From an uncultured Candidatus Saccharibacteria bacterium (GTDB taxonomy: Bacteria; Patescibacteriota; Minisyncoccia; Minisyncoccales; GWA2-38-27), in NCBI GenBank assembly GCA_964470615.1, contig CAYYDH010000001.1, forward strand, positions 1 to 39,050: a stretch of DNA of 39,050 bases, read 5' to 3'. Made by a program: the position numbers and the translations under genes. Shown here one piece after another: positions 4,630-26,354 of the stretch. The notes under the pieces are model-generated. The model was not told where the DNA came from. It did not search any database and was given only the letters and a program-made list of their open reading frames with translations. The stretch's first letter is position 1. Each line of letters opens with the position of its first letter.

Positions 4630-5100
4630 ATGATAAGTCCAACAGAACTAGAAGAAATAAGAAAAACAATAAAGGATTTTTTTCAAAGAACAGGGCTTGA
4701 TTTAGAAGTAGAAATCCACTCCTTAGACGAGGAAGTGCTTCCTATAAAGATAAAAACAAAAGAGCCGAAGATTTTAATCGGTCACTCAGGCCAAACTTTG
4801 TTTGATATCCAGCATCTCTTGAATATTATTTCCCGACGGAAAACTACGGCCGTTGATTTTCATGTCGACCTAGATATTAATGATTATAAGGAGAAAAAAA
4901 TAGAATACCTGCGAGAAATGGCTAGGTCGTTAGCCGATGAAGTGATGCTGACTAGAAAAGAAAAAGAGCTGGCCCCGATGCCAGCTTACGAAAGACGGAT
5001 TATTCACATTGAACTATCTAAAAGGGAGGGTGTGGAAACTGAAAGTCTTGGCGAAGGCCTAGAAAGAAGGATAGTAATCAAACTTTCTACATGCTTATAA
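4630..5100 (+). CDS. jag: Jag/KhpB-like RNA-binding protein (KH + R3H)
   Basis: 156 aa with an R3H-type C-terminus (PMPAYERRIIHIELSKREGVETESLGEG). It sits directly after yidC. Confidence 0.8.
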   Translation: MISPTELEEIRKTIKDFFQRTGLDLEVEIHSLDEEVLPIKIKTKEPKILIGHSGQTLFDIQHLLNIISRRKTTAVDFHVDLDINDYKEKKIEYLREMARSLADEVMLTRKEKELAPMPAYERRIIHIELSKREGVETESLGEGLERRIVIKLSTCL

Positions 5101-6301
5101 GCCCAGCGCTCAGAATTTTCATAGACCTGGCGCAAGGATAGGGTTTTGAAGCTGTCCCGCACCAATCTTTGAAAGGAGCGTTGTCGTTTAAATTACTGTC
5201 GCTTCTCGCCATTACATAAAGCTCGGTTTCCGGGCCCCAGTCTCCGCTGCACGTTTCTCTAAAAAACACAACCAGAAAAGGACCTTCTATTTTAACGGAC
5301 AGAAATTGATGCGGGGGGAAAATATCAGTTCCGGCAGCTGCGCCATCTCTTCCCCCCAAAGTAGTTGCGCCGATCGGGAAATCGGCTGTAAGGTCAATGC
5401 AATTAGAGTCCTTAAGATCGGTAGTATATTTCTTTTCTTTGGCAGCTGTTTCTGCTCCACCACGGTTATAATCTTGTATCTCAAATAGCTGGACATACCA
5501 GTCGCTGTTAGGGTTGTTGTCGCTCAAAACAAAAACCTTTACCGAAGATGGTTTTATCGAGACATTAAAAGTTCCGACAAGGGTGCCAAGGGCCTCCTCA
5601 AACTTGTAAACAATTTGGTTTTTTCCTCCGTAATTACTCTCTTCGTAAAGTATGGCGCCATATTTTTGGTTGTTAAAGGGCACAACATTAACTTCAACGA
5701 TTTTGTCCGTGAGTTCGTTGGGTACTGCTTCGCTGATTGCAGCCAACCAGCAACTTTCATTGATTTCCTTTAATCTGTTATCTAAATCAATTTTTGCAGC
5801 CTCTTTTTGTTCTGGGGGCAGATTTAAGGCTGCTTGCCTTGCAGTATCAAATCCCCTGGCGTCAACTGGTTTTGTGCAAAGCAAAACACCGGGCGAGAGA
5901 TGAGGAAGAATTGGTCCTGTTGGAAGTTCCTGGAGGTTGAGGAGTTGAGGGTTAATGGTATTGAAGATGAGCCAGGCGCAGAATAAAATAACCAGGCCTA
6001 ATATCACGGCTGTGATCTGATTCTTGGCATCATTTCTTTGTTCCGGCCGGCCAGCTGACGATAGATACCAAAAGCCAGCTTTTATTATGGCGCCCAAAGC
6101 GATTAGTCCGCTGATCCCAATTGCAAAATAAAAAACATACAGGACGTATTCATGGAATTGGACGTCGGTTGTTGTCGGTGGCGCACTTCCGGGCACTGTT
6201 ATATAGTCAACCTCTAAGGGAGTTGCAGATTGGATTGAACAGGGAGTTAAAAAAAACAAAACAGCTATAGAGAGAATTGTTGCTGCAAAAAGATTTTTCA
6301 T
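5087..6301 (-). CDS. secreted/membrane protein: T4SS-pilin-like (VirB2/TrbC-type) N-terminal module fused to an unknown C-terminal domain
   Basis: It has a signal peptide, then LEVDY, two hydrophobic helices flanking SSAGRPEQRNDAKNQI, then INPQLLNLQ. This N-module is shared with the next two ORFs. The C-terminal ~270 aa is unrelated to the other two and contains YEESNYGG. Confidence 0.6.
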   Translation of the reverse strand: MKNLFAATILSIAVLFFLTPCSIQSATPLEVDYITVPGSAPPTTTDVQFHEYVLYVFYFAIGISGLIALGAIIKAGFWYLSSAGRPEQRNDAKNQITAVILGLVILFCAWLIFNTINPQLLNLQELPTGPILPHLSPGVLLCTKPVDARGFDTARQAALNLPPEQKEAAKIDLDNRLKEINESCWLAAISEAVPNELTDKIVEVNVVPFNNQKYGAILYEESNYGGKNQIVYKFEEALGTLVGTFNVSIKPSSVKVFVLSDNNPNSDWYVQLFEIQDYNRGGAETAAKEKKYTTDLKDSNCIDLTADFPIGATTLGGRDGAAAGTDIFPPHQFLSVKIEGPFLVVFFRETCSGDWGPETELYVMARSDSNLNDNAPFKDWCGTASKPYPCARSMKILSAGLISM

Positions 6302-6302
6302 A

Positions 6303-7550
6303 TTATTTTATTTGGCCGATTATGTTTATTATTTGGTCGCAAATTCCCATTATTTCACCTGGCAGAGAGTTAATTTGGCTAGCCTGATTTTGAATTTCCG
6401 ATACCGGGCAAGGATTGCCGCCGGAGCATTTATCTGGTTGGCAGCCGCACAATTTATCGTGGCAACCGTATCTGGCGCCCGTGAGACAGCTTGGTTGGCA
6501 TTTTGCCCCGACGTCAGAAAAACATTGATCTGGCAATTTAGCTATCTCGGTTGTCGGTGCTTCTACTTTAGTTAAAGCAGTGGCTAGATCTTTAAGCTTC
6601 TGGATGAGCTGTGTTTTGTATTGCTTTTCTTGCTCTATTTTTTGTAATTCTCGTTCAAGCTGGTTAGTTGTTGCCGGCGACGCTACTTCATTCGCTTTTT
6701 CACGAGAGATTAAGGCGTTATAAAAAGCTATTTTTTTGTCTAGAACTAAAGTGACGTTTAAGTTTAAGTCTTTTGCTTCAGCTAAAGCCCTGGTCTTATA
6801 GTAAAGCATAATATCTCTCCAGCCGACAATCTCTTTTTGTAAAGCTCCTATTCTGACTGCGTCCGGACATGGGTGAGCACCTTTTGGATATTGACCGCCG
6901 CAAAGATTCGGATCGTTTCCTGCATCTGGCCCGGCATAACACCATTTAGCTTCGCAAGAAGCGTTAGCCTCCCCTCCATTGCACAAACAAAGAGAACGAG
7001 TTCGATCGCAGTCACATTTGTCAGTGAGGGATTTTATATCCTCGGCGTTTCCTTTAGCTTTGTCAGGCAGGGTCTTTACTATATCAGCCATATCTTTTAT
7101 TCTTCTTAAAAGATCAGAAGACGGAAGGTCGGGATCCGGGTAAGAAGTAGGGCTGACTTGCGGGAGGTTAATGTTAGTCAGGCTGAGCGAGATCAACTGG
7201 GGGTTGATGTTTACTAATATCAAGTAAGAGGCGAGCAAAAGTATAATGCCCCAAAAGACAGCGACAATTTTATCTCTCGCTGCCTTAATTTTTTCTGGGT
7301 TTCCAGCCGATGTTAAAAGAATAATGCCGCCCTGGGTTAAGTTCCAAAGAGCAGTAATACCAGCCCCGGCAATAAAGAAACCGTAGATATACTTAATAAA
7401 AAGAGGTACATCTACATCGTCTAAGTTTTGCGTGTCTAGCCCGCGATAATCAACCTCTAAGCTTCTGGCAGCAAGGGCAAAACCGAATATCAAAAACAGG
7501 CTGATAGTTGCTAGAAAAAAGACAGCGATTTTTAAAGGCTTTTTATTCAT
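6303..7550 (-). CDS. T4SS-pilin-like N-terminal module fused to a Cys-rich/coiled-coil domain
   Basis: N-module: signal peptide, LEVDY, TM, TSAGNPEKIKAARDKI, TM, INPQLISLS. Two Cys clusters follow (CDCDRTRSLCLCNGGEANASCEAKWC... and CFSDVGAKCQPSCLTGARYGCHDKLCGCQPDKCSGGNPCP), separated by a helical stretch. Confidence 0.6.
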   Translation of the reverse strand: MNKKPLKIAVFFLATISLFLIFGFALAARSLEVDYRGLDTQNLDDVDVPLFIKYIYGFFIAGAGITALWNLTQGGIILLTSAGNPEKIKAARDKIVAVFWGIILLLASYLILVNINPQLISLSLTNINLPQVSPTSYPDPDLPSSDLLRRIKDMADIVKTLPDKAKGNAEDIKSLTDKCDCDRTRSLCLCNGGEANASCEAKWCYAGPDAGNDPNLCGGQYPKGAHPCPDAVRIGALQKEIVGWRDIMLYYKTRALAEAKDLNLNVTLVLDKKIAFYNALISREKANEVASPATTNQLERELQKIEQEKQYKTQLIQKLKDLATALTKVEAPTTEIAKLPDQCFSDVGAKCQPSCLTGARYGCHDKLCGCQPDKCSGGNPCPVSEIQNQASQINSLPGEIMGICDQIINIIGQIK

Positions 7551-7553
7551 GGG

Positions 7554-9668
7554 CTATTTCCCGCAGCAGTAAAAGTTTATTTGATGCTTGCACTTTTGGG
7601 TTTCTCCGCCGGCAGCGTTTAAACAGTTATTCAAACACGTCTTATATTTTCCATTCAGGGCGACAGCATAAGGGGAAGCATCTCTCTGGATATCAGCTTG
7701 GGTCATATTGGTTTCTAAATAACATTGGTATAAACAATTCTGATAGTCTGTTTCTTCTAGACAGCACTTTTCAATGTCAGTTACCTCGCCGAGCGACCCA
7801 ATTGCTTCTATGCAACTTGGGAGTACCAGCTGTGGCTGATTTGGGTCTTCAACTAGTTTCTCAGGAGGAACGTCTGTGATGCAAGTTTTCATTTCAAAAC
7901 GAATAATTCTGTCTAGGTCGGCTAAAAGGTAAGGGACGACTTCGTCAACTATCGTTACAATCCCAATTCTTTCTTTTGGATCATTTTGCGGGCTAGCGCT
8001 ATTTTGCCCTGAGTTGTTGCCTTGTTGTTTCGGTGCGCTGACCACGCCAACTATTCCCTCTTGGTAGTTGCTATTATTTTGTTGGCCTTTGCCGTCAAAT
8101 ATCTCAACTATTTTTTGGAGCTGGTTTTTGATTTCGGTCTTCGGACAAGCGCCTTCAGGATATTGCCAGCTATTATCACCGCAACGTTTGGTGCACTGAC
8201 AGCAGCAATCGCCGGCCGGCCCGCAGTCGCAGCAAACTTCATCGCAAGGTTGGCAATCGCAGAAAGAATAACATCTCTGGGAGCTACACTGGCTAACTAA
8301 GACATGAAGATAATCAACTGCATTGTGTTCCTGCTCTCCTAAATTAATTAGTTTTTCTAACCTCTCAACAATTTTATTACCAAGCTTTTCAGACCGGTCA
8401 ATAATTTCTCCGATTGCTACTTCGGTGCAGTGCTCTTTCTCTCCTTGCGTTATGCCTTCGCCGAAATCAGGAGGGAGAAGAGACAGCTCTTCGGGCAAGA
8501 TTCCTGGTTGTTCTCCCAAGATGCTGCCGCTAATCGGGCAGTAGAGAGTGGCCCATTCTTGTAGCGGGTTTATCTTTTCCCAGAAACTAATATCTGCGAA
8601 TTGCCAGCCGTAAAAGTCGTAAAAATCTTTATTAAACAGAGTTTCGGCCAGAGAACTTAGCAGGTTCAACGGGCATTCCAGCATAAACTGCTTTGCTTCC
8701 TCTAGTTTCTTTATCTCTTCTTTTATCAAGCGTATTTCCTCATTAGCCTTTGTCAGTTCTTGGACTAAGCTAGTTTTGATAGTCGTTTGTTTGTTATCTT
8801 TGTCTTGTATCGTAATATTGGTGCCGAGAAAAAGAGCTTCTAGGTTTTTTTGTTCAAGCTCTTGGATTTTATCTCTGACCATATAGCAAGGATCGCTGGT
8901 GCAGCCAGGTTTGTCCCGGCAAACATTGTCTATACATCCTTCTCCGGGGTTATCCAGCCAGCAGCAGGGTTTAGGCTCTTTGCTCATATCAGAATTGTTG
9001 CAAGTGCACTGTTCAGTAAGTTTTTGGAGTTCTGTACTTTGATCTTTTAACAGTTGGCTAAGCGCCTTAACGCTGCTAGCAATATCCCGGATTCTTTCCA
9101 TTCTGGGCTTTCTTTTGCCTATTTCTGCTTGAGGCACCTGGCTTTCAAAAATACCCTTCTCGATTATTGTACCGAATGGGACCCTGGCGTCTATTACTGA
9201 ACGAACATTTGTCTGGGGAGGGTCAGGAAGCGGGATCGGGCTGGCAGTTGGACTTGGCGCCTCAATGGTTGGTATGGTCAAATTTGGGATGCTGGGGTTG
9301 ATTACCCTTAGCACTAAGACAGAACTGAATAGGATCAATAAGCCGAAAAAGACAGCAAAAAACTGATCTTTGGCTGATTTCATTTCCTCAGCCTTTCCAG
9401 AAGAAATGAGATAGCGGACGCCGGCAATAGTCAGCATTACCAAGGCTATTACTCCTGAAACCCAGATTAATAAGACAAAAATGTATTTTACAAAAGAATA
9501 AAGAATTTCTCCTTCGCTGACGCCTGTTTTTAAAAAGTCTTGAGGGGGGTCAGCGCCGAGAACACGTGGATAAGTTACTTCCAAGGCCAAAGCAAAATGA
9601 GTGGCAAAAAGCAAAAAGATAAGAAAAACAGAAAGAAATAGGATTTGTTTTTTGTGGCCTGCCTTCAT
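7554..9668 (-). CDS. T4SS-pilin-like N-terminal module fused to a large (about 570 aa) Cys-rich/coiled-coil domain
   Basis: N-module: signal peptide, LEVTYP, TM, SSGKAEEMKSAKDQF, TM, INPSIPNLT. At least three Cys-dense clusters follow, one with 14 Cys in 49 aa (nt 8142..8288). Confidence 0.6.
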   Translation of the reverse strand: MKAGHKKQILFLSVFLIFLLFATHFALALEVTYPRVLGADPPQDFLKTGVSEGEILYSFVKYIFVLLIWVSGVIALVMLTIAGVRYLISSGKAEEMKSAKDQFFAVFFGLLILFSSVLVLRVINPSIPNLTIPTIEAPSPTASPIPLPDPPQTNVRSVIDARVPFGTIIEKGIFESQVPQAEIGKRKPRMERIRDIASSVKALSQLLKDQSTELQKLTEQCTCNNSDMSKEPKPCCWLDNPGEGCIDNVCRDKPGCTSDPCYMVRDKIQELEQKNLEALFLGTNITIQDKDNKQTTIKTSLVQELTKANEEIRLIKEEIKKLEEAKQFMLECPLNLLSSLAETLFNKDFYDFYGWQFADISFWEKINPLQEWATLYCPISGSILGEQPGILPEELSLLPPDFGEGITQGEKEHCTEVAIGEIIDRSEKLGNKIVERLEKLINLGEQEHNAVDYLHVLVSQCSSQRCYSFCDCQPCDEVCCDCGPAGDCCCQCTKRCGDNSWQYPEGACPKTEIKNQLQKIVEIFDGKGQQNNSNYQEGIVGVVSAPKQQGNNSGQNSASPQNDPKERIGIVTIVDEVVPYLLADLDRIIRFEMKTCITDVPPEKLVEDPNQPQLVLPSCIEAIGSLGEVTDIEKCCLEETDYQNCLYQCYLETNMTQADIQRDASPYAVALNGKYKTCLNNCLNAAGGETQKCKHQINFYCCGK

Positions 9669-9685: not shown

Positions 9686-10147
9686 CTAAGTAGATTCTTC
9701 TGGTTCTGGGGTACTTTCTCCCCCGCTTTCAAAAACCATCTGGAAAATGACATCAAAGATCATAAACCCGCCGATAAAAACTAACCCGACGGCGTCAGCA
9801 ATCCAAAAATCATCTAATCCAAAACAGAGGAGAATTAGCCCCACCAAATCCAGAATCAGCGCCAAGGGGAATATTATTAAACCAACTGGGTTGGTAAAAC
9901 CACCCGGGGTGCTGTTTAAATGATAGTAGACAGCGATTGTCCAGGCCGGGGCAACGCCTCCCAAATAAGGGACTATTTCTGCTAAAAGTCCGAGCCCAAG
10001 CCTTTTGAGGAGCTTTGTTAAGAGTTTTTTAGCGCTTTTGGTTAAAACAACTTTGCCCCTGCCCTTTTTTTCTTCCTGTTCTGGACCGGCCTCAGGGGAC
10101 GTTTCAGCAGCACTTTGCGAAGTTTTTTCTTCTTTGTCGTCGGGCAT
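9686..10147 (-). CDS. small membrane protein with acidic termini (hypothetical, T4SS-operon member)
   Basis: 153 aa with a charged N-terminus, 3-4 hydrophobic segments and an acidic tail (GGESTPEPEEST). It is tightly packed between the VirB4 gene and the pilin-like genes. Confidence 0.5.
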   Translation of the reverse strand: MPDDKEEKTSQSAAETSPEAGPEQEEKKGRGKVVLTKSAKKLLTKLLKRLGLGLLAEIVPYLGGVAPAWTIAVYYHLNSTPGGFTNPVGLIIFPLALILDLVGLILLCFGLDDFWIADAVGLVFIGGFMIFDVIFQMVFESGGESTPEPEEST

Positions 10148-10152
10148 AGAGC

Positions 10153-11976
10153 TTATAACCCGCCCTCAAACTCCCTTTTTGCTTCTTTTATTCTGGCTAC
10201 TTCTTCGGGGGCGGTAGTAATGAGCTGATTCTCTGCGTAAGAAGCCACTACTTCAATTAACACTCTTTTCGGCCCTGCGATAAAGATCCCTTCACCCACC
10301 GGCGATTCTAAAAGTAAGAGTTTTTCTTCTTCGGTCAAGTTGAAGGCGCTTTTAACAGTATCAATGGTAGCAGTGCTTTGTTTCATCAAAAGTTTCAGCT
10401 CTGAATTATTTATGATTGGTTGGCCGTATTCAGATTTCATAAAGTCATTGACATCTTGAGTGACAGTGGTGACTCCCAGCCAATATTTTCTAGCTCTTTT
10501 CACTGTGCCGAAGAGAAAAGAGGCGCCATCCACGTTTTTTATCAGCCACCAGGCTTCGTCGATTATCAGCATCCTTCTTTTCATTTTCGAGGTAATGGTT
10601 TTCCAGATGTATCTTAAAACCATGAAAAGGGCCATTGGTCTAAGCTCGTCTTCCATGTCGCGGATGCCAAAAACAACAAAGCGGTTCTCAATGTTGATAT
10701 TAGAGGGCTGGTTGAAAAAACCAGAATACACTCCTTTAGTAAATCTTTGGATTCTTCTTACCAGAGAGTCTGTTCCTTCCATTGCAGAAAGGACTTCTTC
10801 TAAGTCGCTCATCGTTGGGAAGGGAAGCCCTTCTTTTTTGCCCCAGGTTGCAGGATCGGAATCTGGCGTTATATCCCTGGCTGCGTAAGTTTCAGTGATA
10901 GCAGTATCAATCATGCTGTCTTCTTCTGGTGTCAGCCCGCTTAACATTACTCGGATTAAACCTATCAGATTAACGATATTTGTTCTCAGGACGTCCTGAG
11001 GCATTTCCCCTTCTTTGGGCTGGGGTAGGTCGAAGGGATTAATATGGTTCGGCGATGAAAGAGAAATATTAAAGAAAGACCCTCCGACTGCATCAGAAAG
11101 GAACTTGTATTCATTTTCCGGATCAATTACCACCACATCAGTTCCCATCATCAAATACCTTAATATCTCCAACTTTATAGCATAGCTTTTGCCTCCGCCT
11201 GAAACTCCGAAAATAACCGAATTGGCATTGGCTAATGAGAATCGGTCAAAAAGCACGAGAGAGTTGTTATGGCGGTTGATTCCGTAGAGAATTCCTTCGT
11301 TGGAGCTTAGGTCAAAGGATACAAAAGGAAAGGAAGCAGAAAGCGGACTGGTATTCATTAAGGTGGTTACCATCAAGAGATCTAAAGCATAGGGGGAAGA
11401 ACAGGTAAATCCTTCTTTTTGCTGGTAAAGAGCGGGCTTAATGTATATTAGGCGAGATTCAAAGATTGAGCGTAGATTTGTTTCTACGTCTCTCAATTCT
11501 TCTTCATTGTCTCCGTAGACAGTAATGTACAAGCTGAAGCGGAACATTCTTTCTTGAGCGGTTTGAAGCTTGTCGCGCAGGTCTTCCAAATCCTGGTAAG
11601 CAACCTCTAGAGATGGGTCGCGAATCAATCCTTTTTCTTCCCTTTCTATTAGCTCAGCCTGGATCTCAGTAACCTTTTTACGGAGGTTTTTCAAAACCCT
11701 TTCGCTTTCAACCGGATGAAAGTGGAAAGAAATGTCTAAAGGCACATTCATGTTTATCAAGGGAGACAGCCAACCGGTATTCAAATATCGGGGATAGGAG
11801 AAAATAAAATAGGTTCGGGCCATTCTTTCACCCAGTTTCAGATAGTTTTGTTTCGCTTCAATAAAAGAAGGCGCGATAATATCGTTAATATTCAAGGGTT
11901 CTTCACTGGGAAGCGCCTCGTCGGCTCGTTTTGTTTTTGATAAAAAAGGAATCTTAAACATAATTTTACTATTCAA
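10153..11976 (-). CDS. VirB4/TrbE/PrgJ-type T4SS ATPase, ATPase (C-terminal) portion
   Basis: 607 aa with Walker A GVSGGGKSYAIK and Walker B RRMLIIDEAWW. The DUF87/AAA_10-like layout is typical of conjugative VirB4 ATPases. Confidence 0.85.
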   Translation of the reverse strand: MNSKIMFKIPFLSKTKRADEALPSEEPLNINDIIAPSFIEAKQNYLKLGERMARTYFIFSYPRYLNTGWLSPLINMNVPLDISFHFHPVESERVLKNLRKKVTEIQAELIEREEKGLIRDPSLEVAYQDLEDLRDKLQTAQERMFRFSLYITVYGDNEEELRDVETNLRSIFESRLIYIKPALYQQKEGFTCSSPYALDLLMVTTLMNTSPLSASFPFVSFDLSSNEGILYGINRHNNSLVLFDRFSLANANSVIFGVSGGGKSYAIKLEILRYLMMGTDVVVIDPENEYKFLSDAVGGSFFNISLSSPNHINPFDLPQPKEGEMPQDVLRTNIVNLIGLIRVMLSGLTPEEDSMIDTAITETYAARDITPDSDPATWGKKEGLPFPTMSDLEEVLSAMEGTDSLVRRIQRFTKGVYSGFFNQPSNINIENRFVVFGIRDMEDELRPMALFMVLRYIWKTITSKMKRRMLIIDEAWWLIKNVDGASFLFGTVKRARKYWLGVTTVTQDVNDFMKSEYGQPIINNSELKLLMKQSTATIDTVKSAFNLTEEEKLLLLESPVGEGIFIAGPKRVLIEVVASYAENQLITTAPEEVARIKEAKREFEGGL

Positions 11977-12598
11977 TTAATTCAGTTGGTATTTCTGGGT
12001 AATAACCTCTTTCTGCTTCAGTAGGATGGTATAGACTCCAGAACAATTCAATCAATTCTGGATTGTTCAAGGGAGCAGACCCTAAACCGCAGTTTCTTAA
12101 ACCATGCATGACAAATTCGACCCTTTGCATTAATTGGATTTTGGCGCGGGAGAAGCTTTCCTCGGTCAGAGCGGTTTTAACAAACCTTTTGGTCAGGTTG
12201 ATGCCCTGGGTTTCAGTAAGGAAAAAGGGCACAATGACATAAAAGGTTTTTTGCATAATCGTTCCTTCCTCTAATATTCCTTCTACGAAGTTATGATACT
12301 CGGATATTTGGAGCTTCAGCAAATCGTTATTTTCCCGACCTTCAATTTCTTTAAGCTTTGCTAGATACCCAGTCATATTAAGGCGCCTGGACTGGACAAG
12401 AATCTGGCAGGGAAAATCTAGCGAGTTCAGAAAGTTTTGGAATTGATAAATAATAGCATTTTGCTCGTCCTCTGATTTTAAGGCAAAGTTTAAAGACGGA
12501 ACTCCGATTACGGTCCTTAAGCTTTTGTCTTTTAAAATCAAAACTCCTTCTTTGATTTGCTCTATTTCTAAAAAGTCTTGGGTTGAAAGATTGGCCAT
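11969..12598 (-). CDS. VirB4 N-terminal-domain-like protein (a separate ORF overlapping the ATPase ORF by 8 nt)
   Basis: 209 aa. The pattern TQDFLEIEQIKEGVLILKD...VIGVPSLNFALKSEDEQNAIIYQFQNFLNSLDFPCQILVQS matches the N-terminal region of Gram-positive VirB4/TraE/PrgJ proteins. 209 + 607 aa is about the length of a full VirB4. Confidence 0.6.
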   Translation of the reverse strand: MANLSTQDFLEIEQIKEGVLILKDKSLRTVIGVPSLNFALKSEDEQNAIIYQFQNFLNSLDFPCQILVQSRRLNMTGYLAKLKEIEGRENNDLLKLQISEYHNFVEGILEEGTIMQKTFYVIVPFFLTETQGINLTKRFVKTALTEESFSRAKIQLMQRVEFVMHGLRNCGLGSAPLNNPELIELFWSLYHPTEAERGYYPEIPTELIE

Positions 12599-12599
12599 G

Positions 12600-13010
12600 C
12601 TATTTTTTTCTTGTTTCTAAGCGGGTGAACAGGTCGCCCAGCCGGCTTTTTTTAGAAACTCTTAAAGACGACTCTGCTGTTTGTATTTCTTCTGGTACTG
12701 GTGGCTTTTCGATAATAATCGGCGGAACATTTTTCTTTTTCCATAGGTAAACCTTTGGCTTAAAAAGAAAAAAGAACATATTTTTTATAAAAATCGGCAG
12801 TGGTATTTTTTCTACCTTCAAAAAGGCCAGGGCGCAGGCTATTCCCATGATAAAAATTGTTATGGCAATAAAAACCTGGAGAGATGGGATCATGAAATAA
12901 AGGAAAAGGCAAAACCCGCCAGCGCTTCCTACAAAGACAAACTGTTTAAAAGTTAATGGGCCGACTATTTTTCCCTCTTTTTCTATAAATTGGGGGACAG
13001 TGAAGTTCAT
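12600..13010 (-). CDS. PrgI-family (VirB3-like) small membrane protein
   Basis: 136 aa. The N-terminus VPQFIEKEGKIVGPLTFKQFVFV followed by two TM helices is the PrgI-family pattern. It sits immediately upstream of VirB4. Confidence 0.6.
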   Translation of the reverse strand: MNFTVPQFIEKEGKIVGPLTFKQFVFVGSAGGFCLFLYFMIPSLQVFIAITIFIMGIACALAFLKVEKIPLPIFIKNMFFFLFKPKVYLWKKKNVPPIIIEKPPVPEEIQTAESSLRVSKKSRLGDLFTRLETRKK

Positions 13011-13012
13011 AT

Positions 13013-13450
13013 TTATTCTATTGGTTCTCGATACGGATCATTTTTTGTTATTGTTTCTTTGGGCGGTTCAGGTTTTTCCTCTTGGCCCGTTGGCTTTATT
13101 TCAATTTCTGGAATTTCGCTTATTTTTGTTTGGTAAAGCGCCTCCAGACTTTCTCTAACTGGTAAGAAGATAGAATTGTTGATTCTCGCCGACAGTTGTT
13201 CAGCAACGTTTTTTTCCAGAATTAATTCCTTTTCAAAAACTTCGGCTAGTTCGCTTGGTAAGAGCAACCCCAGCAGGACATAGCCTGTTTGCTTGCTTAC
13301 TTCGAACATTACTTTCCCGTCGGTAATACCGACTTGGTTGCAGGCAGCGCCGATACTGACGCCTGATTTTTCAGCAAAGAGCACTTCCTGGAGATCCTTA
13401 GGGAGCTTATTGTATAAAATCCGAAGCTGTTCTTTAGGATAATTTGGCAT
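13013..13450 (-). CDS. hypothetical protein, first gene of the T4SS-like operon
   Basis: 145 aa with a helical domain and an acidic Pro/Glu tail. There is a 2-nt gap to the PrgI-like gene. No motif was recognised. Confidence 0.5.
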   Translation of the reverse strand: MPNYPKEQLRILYNKLPKDLQEVLFAEKSGVSIGAACNQVGITDGKVMFEVSKQTGYVLLGLLLPSELAEVFEKELILEKNVAEQLSARINNSIFLPVRESLEALYQTKISEIPEIEIKPTGQEEKPEPPKETITKNDPYREPIE

Positions 13451-18932: not shown

Positions 18933-19154
18933 TTGGCTTCTGCAAGGGGCGAGTTCTGCGTAGCAGGGAAATACTACTTTGTTATAGACACGGACAATAG
19001 TGTTTACCCTTGTACCTTTCTTTCTTCGCCGCAATTCAAGATCGGCGTATGGGAAAACGGCCAGATAAAGATTACAAGACCCGTTTCTCATGACGGCAGT
19101 TTTTGCGTGGCAGAAAGAGAGCTTATTACTAGCACGCTATCAGGCGTTGCTTAG
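18933..19154 (+). pseudogene. truncated C-terminal (SPASM/twitch-like) fragment of a radical SAM enzyme
   Basis: CVAGKYYFVIDTDNSVYPC matches the C-x-A-G...G/N-x-V-x-P-C auxiliary-cluster motif. No radical-SAM core precedes it. The frame stays open upstream into the amidohydrolase start region without an ATG. Confidence 0.5.
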
Positions 19155-19155
19155 G

Positions 19156-19179
19156 GCCGGCGCTTTGCGCTGGCTTTTT
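19156..19179 (+). terminator. intrinsic terminator
   Basis: GCCGGCGC-TTT-GCGCTGGC (one G-U pair) followed by TTTTT. Confidence 0.6.
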
Positions 19180-19186
19180 ATATAAT

Positions 19187-19215
19187 TTGACATTCTCCGT
19201 TTTAGTAGTTAGAAT
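19187..19215 (+). promoter_or_regulatory. promoter in front of the first GC-rich gene
   Basis: aaTTTGACA context: TTGACA (19187..19192), a 17-nt spacer, then TAGAAT (19210..19215). Confidence 0.5.
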
Positions 19216-19305
19216 AAATTTAGTTCGCCGAGAACGGCCTGCGCTTAGCTTGCCGAAGCATTCTCGGCTTTAAAAACAGATAATCAGGAAGAGGGAGAGA
19301 CAGAT

Positions 19306-20925
19306 ATGAACGGGAAACACGGGATCTGGCTGTTAGGACTGGTCACCTTTCTGGTTCTGGGCTCTGGAGCGGCAGCCGATGAAGCTACGGATGCTTTTGA
19401 GTCGCTTTATGGCGACGAAATGAAGCAAGTTTCATCTACGCCGTCGCCGGCAGACAACGTAGTTTTGGCAGCCAAACTTTTAGAGGCTGCCCGAGGAATT
19501 GCCGAACAACCAGCTTTTCTCACCGTGCTTTGCGAAAAGGTTTACGAGCTTGGCGCCGAGGATTTGACCGGGTATCCTGCTGCTGTATTTGCCATGGAGC
19601 TCCTGGCTGAAAAGGCGCCCGATAAGAAGGTAGAGTGTCTTCAGAAATGCGCTTCTCTTGTCCAGGGCGAGTACTCTAAGGTTCGCGACGAAGCGAAGAA
19701 AAGAACAGGCTGTTTGCTTGTTCTGGCGCTGAAGAACGTTGCTGATGCCCAGGTTTCTCTTGGTGACTTGGATAGTGCCACAGCGACGCTGAGACAAGCC
19801 ATGGACGTAGCTTCCTCCGCCGGTTTTTCTTCGTCAGCCCTTCAAGCCAAGCTGACCACGCTTTTGCGGCAGCAGGCGGCAGAGAAACAAACTACTGCTT
19901 TAAAGGTTAAGCTTGTAGCCAACCCCAACGACACTGCTTCGCGCAAGAAACTGGTTCATCTGTATTTGGTAGAATTGGACAATGCGGCCGAAGCAGCTAA
20001 CTTCCTTGGAGAGACCTTGGACGGAACGACGCGAAAGCATGTACCCGAAGCTAGCATGCCTATCGACGAAGTCCCGGAAACGGTTTGCCTGGGACTTGCC
20101 AAATGGTACGCTAGCTTAGCCGAAACACCGGTGATGACAAGCAGGGCTGCCATGCTTTGGCGAGCCAAAGCATACTATGAGAGATTTCTTGACCTTCATC
20201 GGGTGCAAGACCTTTCTAGGGCCGCTAATACTTTAGCCCTGAATAAGGTTGAGGAATCTTTGGCAAAACTCGGGCCAACGAGCCAGCAAAGCAATGGGTC
20301 AAGCTCTTGGATCGACTGCTTGAGGCTGGTCGAACTGCCAAGGCACGCAGTCAGCGGGAAGTGGGAGAGGAAAGGTACCCAGCTCTTCGTTGCCGAAGAG
20401 GGGAAAAGCTGTCTTGCCACTATTCCGCTTTCACCGGAATCAAGCTACCAACTGCAGGTTGTCTTCACGAAAGTATCGGGTAACGGTCAGGTTGGTGTTG
20501 CTCTGCCCATTAAGTCCGCGTCCTGCGACATTGTCCTGCAGCCTGATATTTTCGGACTCGAGAAGATAAAAGAGGAAAACGGCAAAGAGGGCGGGAAATG
20601 GGTTGGTTTCGGTCCAGTTGTCAGCGGACGGGACTACTGCCTGGATATCAAGGTTGAAATCCGCGGTAGCCAGGCTGCCATTGATACGGGCTTGGACGGC
20701 AAATGCCTTATTCAATGGCAAGGACCGTCTTCTTCGCTCCGAGCCACTCCAGGGTGGTCTTTGCCGGAAACCAAGTTCCTAAAGCTGCATGCCTGGAATG
20801 CTGCGGTCCTATTTCGCAGCGTACGTCTGAAGGCAGCTCCAGAGGAACCTAAGGTGCTCAGCCAAGCCTTGTTAGACTATATCAACAACAAGGCTGCGTT
20901 TTTCGGCGTAGCGCCTAAGAAGTGA
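19306..20925 (+). CDS. secreted protein: helical (TPR-like) N-domain plus beta-rich C-domain (possibly ConA-like/DUF1080-like)
   Basis: 539 aa with a signal peptide (MNGKHGIWLLGLVTFLVLGSGAAADE) and a GGGAGAG Shine-Dalgarno sequence 7 nt upstream. The C-terminal pattern is GKWERKGTQLFVAEEG...YQLQVVFTKVSGNGQVGVAL. GC is high (36/60 in 19321..19380). Confidence 0.7.
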   Translation: MNGKHGIWLLGLVTFLVLGSGAAADEATDAFESLYGDEMKQVSSTPSPADNVVLAAKLLEAARGIAEQPAFLTVLCEKVYELGAEDLTGYPAAVFAMELLAEKAPDKKVECLQKCASLVQGEYSKVRDEAKKRTGCLLVLALKNVADAQVSLGDLDSATATLRQAMDVASSAGFSSSALQAKLTTLLRQQAAEKQTTALKVKLVANPNDTASRKKLVHLYLVELDNAAEAANFLGETLDGTTRKHVPEASMPIDEVPETVCLGLAKWYASLAETPVMTSRAAMLWRAKAYYERFLDLHRVQDLSRAANTLALNKVEESLAKLGPTSQQSNGSSSWIDCLRLVELPRHAVSGKWERKGTQLFVAEEGKSCLATIPLSPESSYQLQVVFTKVSGNGQVGVALPIKSASCDIVLQPDIFGLEKIKEENGKEGGKWVGFGPVVSGRDYCLDIKVEIRGSQAAIDTGLDGKCLIQWQGPSSSLRATPGWSLPETKFLKLHAWNAAVLFRSVRLKAAPEEPKVLSQALLDYINNKAAFFGVAPKK

Positions 20926-20938
20926 GGAAACAAATTAA

Positions 20939-20978
20939 AGCGTGGTAGATGAAATCTTCTATCACGCTTTTTCTTTTT
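20939..20978 (+). terminator. intrinsic terminator
   Basis: An 11-bp stem, AGCGTGGTAGA / TCTATCACGCT (one G-U pair), followed by TTTTTCTTTTT. Confidence 0.7.
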
Positions 20979-21032
20979 GCTAGAATGTCGTTCTGGGGCG
21001 GTAAAACAACCGCTTCAAGAGATAGGTAAAAT

Positions 21033-21061
21033 TTGACTAAGATTTATGAATCTAGCATAAT
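21033..21061 (+). promoter_or_regulatory. promoter in front of the second GC-rich gene
   Basis: aaaaTTTGACT context: TTGACT (21033..21038), a 17-nt spacer, then CATAAT (21056..21061). Confidence 0.45.
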
Positions 21062-21123
21062 ATAATAAGAAGCACGGTGCAGTTCTTTGAGAATTGAAAA
21101 ACCAAACGGAAGGGAGAACCAAA

Positions 21124-22617
21124 ATGATGCGCGCAAGAACGATGCTGGGTTTGCTGCTGGTTGCAGGGATGGTAGGATTTGTTGTCGCAACGGCGTCTGC
21201 TGAAGCCCCGCAACAGTTTTTCCCTGGCCAAGAAATCCAGGTGAAAGATCAAATGGTCGGTCCGACGAGGCACTATGTTGTGTACTTGCCCAGCGACTAC
21301 GTAGCCGAACGCTCTTGGCCTGCTATTTTTTGCTACCACGGGAAAGGCGGCAGGCCGATAACGCTTCCCTACAAAGACTTTACCGACGGCAAGGGTTTTG
21401 TTCTTGTGGGTATGGACTATTTCTGGGACAGCATGAACGTCCACAGCGAAATCGGCCAGGATGTGCGGAATATCAAACGGCTTGTCCCGCAACTAGCCAA
21501 ACAGTTGAACCTGGATCCCAACCAGTTGTTTATCGCCGGCAACAGCGCCGGCGGATTCGCGGCCAGCGGTATTGCCGAAGCCACGCCGTCTTTTTGGGCA
21601 GGCGTTATGATTTTAGGCGCTGGACGATATGAAAATCTTCATAAGCGTCCAGCTATTCTTCCTGGCACAGGTTCTTCTTTCCCGATCTCGGGATTTGGTG
21701 TCGCAATGCCGAAAAGGCCCAAAGACGCCAATTCGCTCGCAGGTAGAGGCATCTATTTGGGGGCGGGTGAGCGGGATACAAATCTTTGGTGGGCCGAAAC
21801 AGCTAGAGATTATTACCAAAGTATCGGAGCCGATGTCACCTTCGAAACTTATAAAGGCGTCGGTCACGGAACTTATCCCGGTACAGAGGTAATAAAGAAC
21901 TGGCTCTATTCAAACGGGCCCTTGAAACAAGCAGAAAGCGGGATAGGCAAAGCCCAGGCTATGCAAAACTCCGGAGAACTGGGAAAAGCCTACGAGCTGT
22001 TTGTTGCGCTAGCTTCATTGACAGGAAACAATGAGAAGCTGGCCGAGATTCTGGGCCAGGCTGCTAAAGCAGCCAATCAGCTGGCCGGCGACGCTGAGGC
22101 AAGGATTGGAGCAGCTGAAACCGCGGCGGCCGATGGTCGCTACGAAGAAGCGCTCAAGATTCTTTCTCGGGTTTCCGCTTCCTACAAGGGCTCTAGTTTC
22201 GGCGGACGAGCAAAAGTCCTTATACCCAAGATGCGGGGCGAGGCGAATGCTAGGAAAAACGCTGAACAGTCCCGGGCGCTTGAGCTTGAGGGCAAGGCCA
22301 GAGAAGCAGAGAAGGTCAAAGATTACCTTACCGCCTTCAAGCTCTACGAGCAGTATCTTACGCTGTTCAAAGGGATTGCTCGGTATGAGTTCGTTAAGAA
22401 CCACTTTGAGTCGCTGAAAGCCGACCCAAAGATTCAGGACGTTCTCCACAAGCAGGAAGCTGATCGCGATTGCCCAGGATGGCTTAAGGAAGCAGACAGG
22501 CTTCTTGAAGAGGGCAAAAACGACGAGGCAAAGCGGCGCTTGCAGAGAATCTTAGATAAGTACGGAGATACGGATTGGGCCGGAAAAGCGAAAGAACGGC
22601 TCAAGAAATTGGACTAG
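21124..22617 (+). CDS. secreted alpha/beta-hydrolase (esterase/depolymerase-like) with a helical TPR-like C-terminal half
   Basis: It has a signal peptide (MMRARTMLGLLLVAGMVGFVVATASAEA), HGKGG, the nucleophile elbow GNSAGG and GVGHG. I prefer the ATG at 21124, which has a GGGAG Shine-Dalgarno sequence, over the TTG at 21094. GC is high (39/60 in 21541..21600). Confidence 0.8.
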   Translation: MMRARTMLGLLLVAGMVGFVVATASAEAPQQFFPGQEIQVKDQMVGPTRHYVVYLPSDYVAERSWPAIFCYHGKGGRPITLPYKDFTDGKGFVLVGMDYFWDSMNVHSEIGQDVRNIKRLVPQLAKQLNLDPNQLFIAGNSAGGFAASGIAEATPSFWAGVMILGAGRYENLHKRPAILPGTGSSFPISGFGVAMPKRPKDANSLAGRGIYLGAGERDTNLWWAETARDYYQSIGADVTFETYKGVGHGTYPGTEVIKNWLYSNGPLKQAESGIGKAQAMQNSGELGKAYELFVALASLTGNNEKLAEILGQAAKAANQLAGDAEARIGAAETAAADGRYEEALKILSRVSASYKGSSFGGRAKVLIPKMRGEANARKNAEQSRALELEGKAREAEKVKDYLTAFKLYEQYLTLFKGIARYEFVKNHFESLKADPKIQDVLHKQEADRDCPGWLKEADRLLEEGKNDEAKRRLQRILDKYGDTDWAGKAKERLKKLD

Positions 22618-22623
22618 CACTTT

Positions 22624-22653
22624 GAAGCGCTTCGACAACCGAAGCGCTTTTTA
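22624..22653 (+). terminator. intrinsic terminator ending the GC-rich island
   Basis: GAAGCGCTTCG-ACAAC-CGAAGCGCTT followed by TTTTATTAT. Confidence 0.75.
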
Positions 22654-22713
22654 TTATGCTAGCTAGCCTCGGCGCTTAGTGCTAGTTTTATTTTTGGGTG
22701 GAAATGTTAAAAT

Positions 22714-22742
22714 TTGACTTTCTAGATTTATATTATATAAAT
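22714..22742 (+). promoter_or_regulatory. promoter of the AT-rich radical-SAM operon
   Basis: aaaaTTTGACT context: TTGACT (22714..22719), a 17-nt spacer, then ATAAAT (22737..22742). The ATG at 22754 is only 11 nt further on and no Shine-Dalgarno sequence is present. Confidence 0.4.
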
Positions 22743-22753
22743 AAGTATCAGAT

Positions 22754-23920
22754 ATGAATAAATATTTATCAGTCCTGAAAGGTAAAACTATAAGTATTCC
22801 CTATAATAATGACCCGAACTTGATTAAAGAGCTTGGGGAATTTTTGGTCGGCTCGCGGAATTTCGATATTTACATTTACTTCGCGCCCAGTCTCTTTATC
22901 ACCAATGCGGGAAGAAAAATGCCAAACCTCAAAAGCTATATTCATAAAGGGAAGTTTAATACGAATAAATTTGACAAAGAACTTTCCGGCGCCTTGAAGC
23001 AGGCAAAAAAATATGGCTTCAAAACCAGCCTACTTTTGAATAATGTATTGCTCGGAATTCCCCACTCCAATAATGATATTAAAAAGACTATTCCTAAAAT
23101 ACAAAAATATTTAGAGCTATTGAATCACGATAAAATTTTAGATAGGGTGACCATATCAAATCCCTATCTTTTAGAGCTTATAAATTGGAAAAAGATGCCG
23201 AACGTTGAAATAAAAACTTCCGTTAACCTCCAAATTAAAAGCGCAAAATCCATAGAACTTTTGGATAATATTTCAAGGTTCTGGCTAAACAAAAAGGTTG
23301 ATTCCATTGAGATTCAGAAAGATTTACTCAGGAATATTGAGATGCTGCGGGCGATAAGGAGAAGAGTCGGCGGGAAAACCAAGCTTTCAATAATTGTAAA
23401 CGAGGGGTGTTTGATCGGTTGTCCCTATCAAATGGCCCACCAGCTTTATGCTTTTTCTTTCCCTTACGGCAATGGAAAAATTAAAAAAAATGATCTTTCC
23501 TTTAATATTGCAAAATGTAAATATATTACAAAGAAGGAGCCATGGCGCATTTTGGATTCAAATTGGATACTTCCCTCTTGGCTAAGACATTATTCAAAAA
23601 TTGTAGACGAATTCAAGTTAACGGATAGAGATGCTTCTACTGAAAATATAATGTATATAGTAAAAGCTTATACTACCGGCATTTACGATAAGAAAAATTT
23701 ATGCAGATTAATAAGCCTACTTAGCATGGAAAAATTTTCATTTCCTGAATCTGCCTTGCCAAAATATTTTTACAAGAAAATCTTGTCTGGAGCAGTAAAA
23801 AACAACAATTATTATAAAAAAATTTGGAAGAATATTTCTGCTTACAATAAATTGAAACCATCTATCGGTCTCAAAGGATTGCAAAAAGATAAACTATACC
23901 AATTTATAGGAAACAATTAA
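22754..23920 (+). CDS. peptidase-U32-family-like protein (TIM-barrel, putative Fe-S)
   Basis: 388 aa. The block order resembles U32 proteins: FKTSLLLNNVLLG, DRVTISNPYLLELI, VEIKTSVNLQIKS, VDSIEIQKDLLRNIEMLRAI, LSIIVNEGCLIGCPYQ. This was recognised by eye only. Confidence 0.4.
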   Translation: MNKYLSVLKGKTISIPYNNDPNLIKELGEFLVGSRNFDIYIYFAPSLFITNAGRKMPNLKSYIHKGKFNTNKFDKELSGALKQAKKYGFKTSLLLNNVLLGIPHSNNDIKKTIPKIQKYLELLNHDKILDRVTISNPYLLELINWKKMPNVEIKTSVNLQIKSAKSIELLDNISRFWLNKKVDSIEIQKDLLRNIEMLRAIRRRVGGKTKLSIIVNEGCLIGCPYQMAHQLYAFSFPYGNGKIKKNDLSFNIAKCKYITKKEPWRILDSNWILPSWLRHYSKIVDEFKLTDRDASTENIMYIVKAYTTGIYDKKNLCRLISLLSMEKFSFPESALPKYFYKKILSGAVKNNNYYKKIWKNISAYNKLKPSIGLKGLQKDKLYQFIGNN

Positions 23921-24005
23921 TACCCTTAATTTTATAAAAATCTTTTTAGCGACAAGCGATCAAAAAGGGAAAGATATAAAATCCTTAATCAGGACGGGAT
24001 TTTAC

Positions 24006-24848: not shown

Positions 24849-24849
24849 T

Positions 24850-25692: not shown

Positions 25693-25703
25693 CCTATAAA
25701 AAT

Positions 25704-26348
25704 ATGAAAAACATAGGCCAATACGACGATGAATATTCTAAATGCCCTTGCTTTTGGGGTACGGAACCTGCGAAATATGTGAAACTAGTTCCAAAATATT
25801 TTTCTTCAGGTAGTGCATTAGATTTAGGAGCTGGAGAAGGGAAAAATAGCGCGTATCTCGCTTCTCTTGGTTTTAATGTTACGGCGATTGAAGTTTCGCT
25901 ATATGCTGTTAGAAACTTTATCAGTTGGCTTTTAAAAAATAAGGAGAAGAGCGATTCTATTGCGGAAAAAATTGACATAATCTGCGCAGACGTAAGAAAA
26001 CTGGACGGATTAATCAATAAAAAATATAATGTCGTAATTGCCTATGGGCTTTTGCATTGCTTCAAATCTAAAAGCGAGATAGCTGACTTTGTGAATAAAA
26101 TGAAAGATAAAACTGCAAAAGGAGGCATAAATGTTATCAGTACATTCACAGACGAGGCGCCAATACCAGAAATTCAGGATTATTTAGTCCCTACCCTATT
26201 GTCCAAAAATGAGCTAAAAGACACATTCTACAAAGATTGGGAAATTCTTGATTATGAACATGGCTTTATTGAGCACACTCATCCTACTTCTCAAACAATG
26301 CACAAGCACGGCCTATGCAGAATGATTGCGAAAAAAAATAAGCCATAG
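25704..26348 (+). CDS. class I SAM-dependent methyltransferase, TehB-like
   Basis: 214 aa with CPCFWGTEPAKYV, motif I LDLGAGEGKNSAYLA and VTAIEVS. Confidence 0.8.
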   Translation: MKNIGQYDDEYSKCPCFWGTEPAKYVKLVPKYFSSGSALDLGAGEGKNSAYLASLGFNVTAIEVSLYAVRNFISWLLKNKEKSDSIAEKIDIICADVRKLDGLINKKYNVVIAYGLLHCFKSKSEIADFVNKMKDKTAKGGINVISTFTDEAPIPEIQDYLVPTLLSKNELKDTFYKDWEILDYEHGFIEHTHPTSQTMHKHGLCRMIAKKNKP

Positions 26349-26354
26349 ACTAAC

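Follow-up and report, generated by a model that had tools for sequence, protein, structure and literature searches.

Three tandem pilin-like proteins with large conserved heads near the chromosomal origin of a Patescibacterium: candidates for a type IV secretion host-contact assembly

Introduction

Tandem arrays of genes encoding VirB2-like pilins are a published feature of Patescibacterial type IV secretion systems (T4SS), described between 2023 and 2025 (PMC12102498, PMC10633639, PMC12857230). Here we report on such an array in an uncultured bacterium deposited as Candidatus Saccharibacteria (contig CAYYDH010000001.1 of assembly GCA_964470615.1; Patescibacteriota according to GTDB), namely a trio of adjacent open reading frames (ORFs) coding for pilin-like proteins of 704, 415 and 404 amino acids (aa). 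The whole stretch of DNA analysed, positions 1 to 39,050 of this contig, is referred to as the window. It represents the chromosomal origin region of a Patescibacterium and contains dnaN, dnaA, rnpA, yidC and jag. The trio is located on the minus strand, directly downstream of the virB4 genes and near dnaA (Table 1).

In Southlakia, predicted pilin subunits encoded within the T4SS cluster are essential (Wang et al. 2023, PMC10633639). A survey of 3,035 Patescibacterial genomes by Quinonero-Coronel et al. (2025, PMC12102498), which used PF18895 among other profiles, reported that 1,135 assemblies have VirB2-like genes in the vicinity of virB4, and that pilin genes with about 25% identity form 441 arrays of 2-11 members. 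These arrays are described there as being close to dnaA, dnaN and rnpA, with an affinity to MPF-FATA and a T4SS without relaxase; a FEMS review of 2025 restates the array findings. In methanogen-parasitising Paceibacteria, proteins with a T4SS_pilin domain are among the most highly expressed unknown extracellular genes (Kuroda et al. 2024, PMC10936435), and Ca. Nealsonbacteria DGGOD1a is an ectosymbiont of Methanothrix (bioRxiv 10.1101/2022.04.20.488981).

The locus described here belongs to this published class of VirB2-like pilin arrays. It shares with it PF18895, the tandem layout beside virB4, the position near dnaA and an MPF-FATA-like T4SS. As far as the source cited above goes, the published arrays are described as 2-11 genes for small VirB2-like pilins, whereas the trio carries heads of 280-570 aa and is invariant in number and order across the lineage. 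A fixed trio, a crystallin-like head, Cys-rich units and heads of large size all go unmentioned in the array descriptions, with part of the spreadsheet supplement covered. What sets the locus apart within this class is its modular, conserved heads and its fixed three-part make-up.

The canonical pilins VirB2, TrbC and TraA (PF04956 and relatives) resemble the trio in having a signal peptide, a two-helix hairpin with a short polar loop, and VirB4 as a partner. They comprise about 70-120 aa and have no head, in contrast to the 404, 415 and 704 aa of the trio with their heads of 280-570 aa. Some canonical conjugative pilins are cyclised head-to-tail, which is impossible in the trio because of the C-terminal head. 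The Mbov_0395 family (NF045849) likewise combines a hairpin with a VirB4 of the same broad type (Mbov_0397), but it consists of an 80-aa hairpin only and resides on a mobile element, and the module of the trio scores just below its cut-off.

Outside the T4SS, the modular type IV pilins PilB and PilC of S. sanguinis (Raynaud et al. 2021, PMC8179133) also consist of a small pilin module carrying a bulky module on a linker, probably at the filament tip, and the minor-pseudopilin tip trimer GspI/J/K is, like the trio, a defined set of three different pilin-like subunits. Type IV pilins are characterised by a class III signal peptide (G/[FM]TLxE) and a single N-terminal hydrophobic helix, neither of which is present in the trio. 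The resemblance is therefore one of analogy and not of homology, the filament superfamily being unrelated. The "Pam" pilus of candidate phyla radiation (CPR) bacteria (bioRxiv 10.64898/2026.03.03.709456) was considered as a relative and rejected, as it is an unrelated Ig-fold, donor-strand pilus.

With a probability of roughly 0.6, we regard the trio as modular VirB2-like pilin subunits that form a heteromeric extracellular assembly for host contact. The T4SS they belong to is chromosomal, oriC-proximal and of the Gram-positive (MPF-FATA-like) type, in a Patescibacterium of the Nealsonbacteria type.

Results and discussion

A shared T4SS pilin module

The original prediction, made from the DNA alone, had proposed three tandem paralogues sharing a pilin module of about 125 aa. 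The coordinates of the three genes proved to be exact and the N-terminal homology was confirmed by BLASTP: over about 125-130 aa the proteins are 36-37% identical (E 7e-18 and 9e-17). Each of them possesses a Sec-type signal peptide that ends in small residues, LE(V/I)xY, two hydrophobic helices with a short polar loop in between, an INP motif, a Pro-rich linker and a large C-terminal head; the motifs quoted earlier (LEVxY, the SAG.PE...AK loop, INP) are present. Signal peptide and the two helices are the only hydrophobic segments, all three of them within the first ~128 aa and none in the heads. In the AlphaFold2 (AF2) models the hairpin is formed by helices 52-88 and 93-123 in the 704-aa protein and by helices 51-81 and 86-116 in the 404-aa protein.

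Compared as whole proteins with PF18895 (T4SS_pilin, gathering cut-off 26.6 bits), the 404-aa protein reached 45.4 bits, the 704-aa protein 30.3 bits and the 415-aa protein 14.4 bits (E 0.041). The proposed assignment of the shared module to a T4SS pilin family is thus supported by scores above the cut-off in two of the three proteins and by the homology of the third (E 9e-17 and 3e-24). Once the N-terminal modules of the three families were isolated, 25 of 25, including that of the 415-aa protein, matched PF18895 at a permissive E<=1 (best E 9.5e-13). The features expected of PF18895 members are all found here, i.e. a signal peptide, a two-helix membrane hairpin and a virB4 gene cluster. For TrbC/VirB2 (PF04956) the three window proteins gave no match at E<=0.1. 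The nearest NCBIfam model was NF045849, an 80-aa pilin-like conjugal transfer protein (Mbov_0395) of Mycoplasma integrative and conjugative elements (ICEs), with 37.7 bits and a cut-off of 40. No match to the module was obtained by tblastn in 72,556 plasmids.

A short stand-alone pilin module is absent from the 39-kb window, the module being carried only by the three genes. The sequence LTPC in the signal peptide of the 404-aa protein was also considered as a lipoprotein signal; this was rejected, since a Pro at -1 is at odds with a lipobox and family members do not conserve the Cys.

Cys-knot units in the 704-aa and 415-aa heads

The heads had been described as extremely cysteine-rich and divergent. 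The former applies to the 415-aa protein (17 Cys, binomial P 2e-8) and the 704-aa protein (36 Cys, P 4e-19) but not to the 404-aa protein, which has 8 Cys (P 1e-2), two of them in the signal peptide/membrane helix; the background for these values was a Cys content of 0.73% over the other 29 ORFs of the window. As to divergence, the 404-aa head is of a different fold, whereas the 704- and 415-aa proteins are homologous far past the pilin module (BLASTP E 3e-24, aa 1-330 of the former and aa 7-311 of the latter). The 704-aa protein is an expanded version of the 415-aa protein with an inserted middle region and an added C-terminal domain.

Profile comparison with hhalign, based on family sub-alignments, revealed two units in each of the two proteins. 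Unit 1 of the 415-aa protein is related to its unit 2 (94.6% probability, E 6.5e-8) and to unit 1 of the 704-aa protein (97.9%, E 5.5e-13), and the second units of both proteins correspond to each other (97.5%, E 7e-12). The two units of the 704-aa protein connect to each other only via the 415-aa family. The C-terminal Cys domain of the 704-aa protein showed no hhalign relation to the units. Hence the repeated unit of the original prediction is real, but it occurs twice per protein and not "two or three times". Each unit consists of a helix, a Cys knot, a PCP turn and a second helix. In the 415-aa protein the pilin module is followed by unit 1, coiled-coil-like helices and unit 2.

The stretch of 14 Cys in 49 aa noted before at nucleotides (nt) 8142-8288 was confirmed and corresponds to aa 461-509 of the 704-aa protein (binomial P 7e-19). 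Across the alignment of the 704-aa family (28 sequences, 36-90% identity) about 26 Cys are conserved. In the hyper-Cys stretch the knot of unit 2 has been elaborated in a lineage-specific way, variable Cys being added to six core Cys.

The AF2 model of the 704-aa protein (pLDDT 70, pTM 0.65) consists mainly of long helices. Those at aa 189-219, 265-331, 419-459, 510-525 and 570-597 are predicted with very high confidence, the Cys-rich knots between them with less. With this model, Foldseek found nothing at E<=0.001 in the PDB and in the viral BFVD; the best-ranked entries, tape-measure proteins and designed helical bundles, reflect generic long helices. Pfam gave no significant match for any of the three heads of the trio. 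The helical-bundle family VirB5/TraC gave neither a Pfam match nor, for the 704-aa model, a Foldseek match in the PDB. Searches of the full-length trio proteins against PDB sequences returned nothing or nothing significant, the sole match of a Cys-rich head being NrfC at E 0.64. In line with the original prediction, the Cys-rich heads therefore match no enzyme or ferredoxin family by Pfam, PDB sequence or Foldseek. Together with the pilin-family match of the module this leaves the prediction standing in both respects.

A predicted beta/gamma-crystallin-like fold in the 404-aa head

The 404-aa protein is composed of the pilin module, a helical hairpin and a beta domain (AF2 pLDDT 72.9, 19 sequences). 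Foldseek matched this model to gamma-B crystallin 4w9a (E 5.3e-5, probability 1.0, TM-score by target 0.66) and to the microbial beta/gamma-crystallin domains 3hzb and 3so1 (E about 0.04, probability 0.97-0.99). The faint resemblance to beta/gamma-crystallins suspected earlier is thereby borne out at the level of the predicted fold, and the 404-aa head is predicted to be beta/gamma-crystallin-like. Similarly, the Y-x4-Y-G-G motif on which that suspicion was based is conserved in the family as Y-x4-Y-x-G. The signature Y218-EESN-Y223-G-G225 fits [YFW]-x4-[YF]-x-G, the family consensus reads YGAILYEExxFxGxS ... PSS, and S253 is invariant.

The head thus resembles the microbial beta/gamma-crystallins clostrillin, flavollin and Protein S, as well as lens gamma-B crystallin, in its predicted Greek-key fold, the Y-x4-Y-x-G motif and the downstream Ser. 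It differs from the microbial proteins in lacking a match to the Pfam family Crystall, no family being found at E<=1 with the head alone, and its calcium motif does not appear to be intact. Reading the sequence, the position of N/D-N/D-x-x-S/T-S is occupied by I-K-P-S-S-V, with the Ser pair kept and the acidic/amide pair absent. We know of no other fusion of a beta/gamma-crystallin fold to a T4SS pilin module.

Conservation of the trio and selection

Each paralogue has its own family of orthologues, with 31 matches for the 704-aa, 49 for the 415-aa and 32 for the 404-aa protein; the named members belong to Candidatus Nealsonbacteria of the Parcubacteria group. Of the 19 related loci compared, 15 were taken from a genome collection; the others come from close relatives in one sample and from a 137-kb contig. 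The order of a 704-like gene, a 415-like gene and a third gene, all three with a pilin module, was found in all 19, down to a head identity of about 25-35%. In most loci ORF145-PrgI-TrsD-VirB4 are situated upstream of the trio and jag-yidC-rnpA-dnaA downstream. In all loci but one (18 of 19), the head of the third gene is 404-like.

Two exceptions to the trio were observed. The third gene of locus L015 (3974-4273) has no recognisable 404-like head, and locus L017 contains an extra 404-like head without pilin module on the opposite strand (11962-12465, minus strand).

The original prediction had suggested host-recognition modules diversified by duplication. The trio would then be an interchangeable repertoire resembling antigenic variation, as for the Trw paralogues of Bartonella or the VirB2 paralogues of Anaplasma. 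In favour of this, the modules of the trio are about 36% identical and the heads differ. At long range, moreover, the heads retain 24-43% identity, compared with 72-78% for VirB4, about 70% for DnaA and about 55% for YidC, indicating that they evolve faster than their neighbours. Adaptation to different hosts has also been proposed for Patescibacterial arrays (PMC12102498). Against a close relative of 90% identity, however, the pairwise Nei-Gojobori omega (dN/dS) of the three genes was 0.058, 0.10 and 0.08, no higher than that of the neighbours yidC (0.043), rnpA (0.064) and jag (0.11); with a dS of about 1, near saturation, these ratios are rough. The hyper-Cys stretch is even among the best-conserved parts between close relatives (96% identity, omega 0.02).

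Neither diversifying selection nor copy-number variation is apparent, and the trio is under purifying selection. Separate orthologue families, three copies in fixed order in 19 of 19 loci, omega values of 0.06-0.10 within the range of housekeeping neighbours, and heads that differ in fold instead of being variants of one fold all speak against a diversified repertoire, which we consider very improbable. The three genes are ancient, fixed paralogues and not recent diversifying duplicates. As their order is kept in every related genome examined, the trio gives the impression of a fixed surface assembly that makes contact with the host cell, and not of a group of newly duplicated variants.

Disulfides or metal in the Cys-rich heads

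Most likely, the head cysteines form disulfides that rigidify stalks. Disulfides are favoured by the extracytoplasmic location deduced for the heads (see below), by the paired gain and loss of some Cys, C619 and C635 being present or absent together (r = 0.92), and by the enrichment of MdbA-like thiol-disulfide oxidoreductases with VKOR in CPR bacteria (bioRxiv 10.1101/335083).

Alternatively, the clusters might bind metal (Zn, Fe-S or in a metallothionein-like manner), which would make the heads extracellular metal-binding or electron-transfer devices directed toward a methanogen host. Dense CxC, CC and CCCxC patterns, Cys counts that are often odd, and the weak, non-significant resemblance to NrfC (E 0.64) would agree with this. 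So would the life of Nealsonbacteria as anaerobic Methanothrix ectosymbionts, for which direct electron transfer has been speculated (bioRxiv 10.1101/2022.04.20.488981). However, Pfam gives no Fer4, metallothionein or other metal-cluster family, and no CxxCH motif was seen when reading the sequence. Only the approximately 26 core Cys are conserved while the extra ones of the hyper-Cys stretch differ between lineages, the paired behaviour of C619 and C635 is what would be expected of disulfides, and CPR bacteria do encode extracytoplasmic disulfide-forming enzymes. Metal binding is accordingly rated as quite unlikely. Ferredoxin and heme readings of the heads were rejected, there being neither a family match nor a visible CxxCH.

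Cys236 in unit 1 and Cys470 in unit 2 of the 704-aa protein were observed to co-vary over 57 family members as well (r = 0.92), which hints at an inter-unit disulfide or at a shared lineage history.

A heteromeric pilin-like assembly and the anchor alternative

VirB2 and TraA expose their loop toward the cytoplasm or lumen and both termini outward in T and F pili. By analogy, cleavage of the signal peptide would leave both ends of the trio hairpins outside the cell, which would place the heads in an extracytoplasmic position. The VirB4 ATPase would then act on the hairpins, and the three subunits would assemble via their pilin modules into one heteromeric extracellular structure. This structure could take the form of a stalk, a tip complex or a short pilus, comparable in function to the GspI/J/K minor-pseudopilin tip or to modular type IV pilins. 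It would present two rigid stalks and a crystallin-like domain to the host surface for attachment; a role as tip adhesin is plausible.

Relatives of the trio indicate that the module is combined with further domains. When 1.84 billion representative proteins were searched with a profile built from the 704-aa head alone, 326 clusters (50% identity) matched at E<=0.001, of which 97 reached E<=1e-30. In the 150 best matches listed, most proteins that align from the start of the profile enter the alignment at about aa 145-165, behind a module of pilin size. PF18895 was N-terminal in six of eight distant members of the head family that were checked, and some add NlpC/P60 or Fib_succ_major. In relatives of the 415- and 404-aa paralogues the module is fused to Peptidase_M23 or YkuD (examples of fusions: Peptidase_M23 in P0060, P0097 and P0106, NlpC/P60 in P0203, YkuD in P0063). 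From this variety of fused domains it follows that the hairpin behaves as a general carrier for extracytoplasmic functional domains. In such relatives the same structure would present peptidoglycan hydrolase heads for remodelling of the envelope.

The fusions also bear on the main rival explanation, in which the hairpin only anchors and does not polymerise. The heads would then be wall-spanning structural or cell-wall-remodelling parts of the T4SS channel, standing in for VirB1, VirB8, an extended VirB6, or adhesins such as PrgB of Gram-positive systems. Peptidoglycan enzymes (Peptidase_M23, NlpC/P60, YkuD) on the same module fit this well, as do the missing sequence link to solved pilins, the lack of a short major pilin in the window, and the general absence of pili from T4SSs of the Gram-positive type (PMC12102498). 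On the other hand, it is one specific hairpin and not any membrane helix that is strictly conserved together with the loop motif and the LE(V/I)xY N-terminus, suggesting that the module itself does something specific. The module is also weakly related to TrbC/VirB2 and to the pilin-like family of Mycoplasma ICEs, and the pilin array is essential in Southlakia. Taken together, a pure anchor function appears rather unlikely.

Several observations weigh against the heteromeric pilin-like assembly that we prefer. Canonical VirB2 pilins comprise about 70-120 aa, Gram-positive T4SSs are normally without pili, and a VirB2-type helix in which each subunit bears a 280-570-aa head would be crowded, except if the linker allowed the heads to spread apart. 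Polymerisation of PF18895 proteins is deduced only from topology and gene context, and the hetero-oligomer only from the conserved 1:1:1 gene content. Among the ORFs of the operon, Pfam and NCBIfam recognised no homologue of VirB6 (assembly platform) or VirB5 (tip). The profile of the N-terminal module found no solved conjugative pilin among PDB sequences, the membrane helices of a sensory-rhodopsin transducer appearing at E>2, i.e. by chance, and the link to TrbC/VirB2 (PF04956) is weak, with 2 of 25 modules touching it at E about 9e-4. Membership in PF18895 is established by the profile matches, whereas, given the poor link to solved pilins, membership in canonical VirB2 is not. Finally, the AF2 models are of moderate confidence, with a pLDDT of about 50-65 in the Cys knots, and the Cys count is even in only 56% of the family members, parity being uninformative for disulfides.

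An extended version of the pilin-like reading is put forward tentatively and is possible at best. PF18895 hairpins would serve as a general Patescibacterial "display handle", and the trio would be a heteromeric T4SS tip or spike, composed of the first modular VirB2-family pilins and acting as the physical host-contact organ of the essential Patescibacterial T4SS, here probably aimed at the methanogen sheath. Two helical stalks stapled by disulfides (or metal) and a crystallin-like adhesin would polymerise through the VirB2-like modules.

The surrounding operon and other genes of the window

The trio terminates a minus-strand operon that converges on jag and has intergenic gaps of only 1-17 nt. 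The gene order is ORF145, a PrgI/VirB3-like gene, a VirB4 N-terminal domain (TrsD-like), the VirB4 ATPase, a 153-aa membrane protein, and the genes for the 704-, 415- and 404-aa proteins (Table 1).

Table 1. Features of the trio and of the adjoining operon genes in the window (positions in nt; residues in aa).
Feature	Position	Strand	Characteristics
704-aa modular pilin-like protein	7554..9668	-	ORF; PF18895 30.3 bits; 36 Cys; 31 full-length homologues
Pilin module, 704-aa protein, aa 29-125	9294..9584	-	LEVTYP N-terminus, helix 1, SSGKAEEMKSAKDQ loop, helix 2, INP
Pro-rich linker, 704-aa protein, about aa 126-161	9186..9293	-	10 Pro in 40 aa (123-162); pLDDT <50; predicted disordered
Cys-knot unit 1, 704-aa protein, about aa 189-281	8826..9104	-	helix, QCTC...DPC, helix; core Cys 221, 223, 236, 250, 256, 261 conserved
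Cys-knot unit 2, 704-aa protein, about aa 425-525	8094..8396	-	holds hyper-Cys stretch; core Cys 461, 466, 470, 492, 496, 508
C-terminal Cys-rich domain, 704-aa protein, aa 596-704	7557..7883	-	11 conserved Cys; ends in conserved C(R/K)HxLNFYCC
415-aa modular pilin-like protein	6303..7550	-	ORF; 17 Cys; 49 homologues
Pilin module, 415-aa protein, aa 30-122	7185..7463	-	in-house N-module profile 111.9 bits
Cys-knot unit 1, 415-aa protein, about aa 144-240	6831..7121	-	KCDCDRT...HPCPDAVRIGALQKEI; hhalign
Cys-knot unit 2, 415-aa protein, about aa 312-395	6366..6617	-	QCFSDV...NPCPVSEIQNQASQI; hhalign
404-aa modular pilin-like protein	5087..6301	-	ORF; PF18895 45.4 bits; 8 Cys; 32 homologues
Pilin module, 404-aa protein, aa 28-123	5933..6220	-	PF18895; NF045849 37.7 bits vs 40
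Beta-rich head, 404-aa protein, about aa 203-401	5099..5695	-	Y218-x4-Y223-x-G225; predicted Greek-key beta/gamma-crystallin-like fold
Conserved small membrane protein, 153 aa, between virB4 and trio	9686..10147	-	no Pfam/NCBIfam family match
VirB4-type ATPase, C-terminal ATPase part, 607 aa	10153..11976	-	PF19044 2.7e-31; NCBIfam conju_CD1110 358.5 bits vs cut-off 325
Detached VirB4 N-terminal domain, TrsD-like, 209 aa	11969..12598	-	NCBIfam
PrgI/VirB3-like protein	12600..13010	-	PF12666 31.2 bits vs cut-off 27
ORF145 (145 aa), first gene of the conserved operon	13013..13450	-	no family match

The VirB4 protein of the window also matches the Mycoplasma Mbov_0397 VirB4 family of NCBIfam. VirB4 is split into two ORFs (11969-12598 and 10153-11976) overlapping by 8 nt, and this split is kept in related loci. 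The 209-aa ORF covers only N-terminal VirB4 regions (Mbov_0397 model 104-253, CD1110 model 5-119; TrsD E 0.0047), and its orthologue in locus L001 carries PF26593 (TraC-like). In loci L010 (3914-7708) and L013 (3793-7578) the VirB4 ATPase gene contains an in-frame, stop-free insert of ~640 aa. It begins directly after the Walker A sequence GAGKS, ends in ...VHNS and has LAGLIDADG-like blocks; an intein inserted in the P-loop and bearing a homing endonuclease is very probable.

Of the 19 related loci, 12 have a homologue of ORF145 upstream of PrgI, and most of the remaining loci are truncated on that side. Similarity to the 153-aa membrane protein was detected by tblastn in L003, L004, L012 and L016 and not in L001; a gene of similar size occupies the matching position in L001 and L003.

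The 404-aa gene and the convergent jag/khpB gene share 14 nt at their 3' ends (5087-5100). A terminator-like hairpin is located on the minus strand at 4986-4967, within jag. In promoter and terminator scans, sites were no more numerous than in shuffled sequence. Over the whole 39-kb window ARAGORN found no tRNA gene and no Rfam family reached its gathering score.

Further surface- or pilus-related genes of the window encode a lamin-tail-domain (LTD) protein (33198-34370, minus strand) and an ATPase of the PilB/T2SSE type (35597-36907, minus strand); the L001 locus, too, is flanked by an LTD protein. A GC-rich island extends from 19000 to 23000 (0.47-0.52, compared with 0.30-0.44 in the flanks). 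Its ORFs code for a 539-aa protein without Pfam match (19306-20925) and a 507-aa protein with alpha/beta-hydrolase and tetratricopeptide repeats (21094-22617). The island may have been acquired horizontally; an assignment of this 19-23 kb stretch as rRNA was rejected, as there was no Rfam match. Three radical-SAM ORFs (24006-24848, 24850-25692 and 26355-27875) are clustered with a TehB-like methyltransferase (25704-26348) within 22754-27875, preceded by a 388-aa ORF without Pfam match (22754-23920). This may be a peptide- or cofactor-modification cluster.

Significance of the modular heads

To our knowledge, no secretion machine other than the T4SS has been shown to be essential to the epibiotic life of a Patescibacterium. 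If its pilin-like genes form a fixed set of three whose products bear large, structured and conserved heads, these heads are concrete candidates for the T4SS surface that contacts the host. They define sizeable uncharacterised families, the profile of the 704-aa head alone retrieving 326 clusters, and the locus is worth structural follow-up. If the proposed assembly is true, the heads would be targets for antibodies, for labelling in cryo-electron tomography and for binding assays, and VirB2-type pilins would be capable of being modular, as type IV pilins are.

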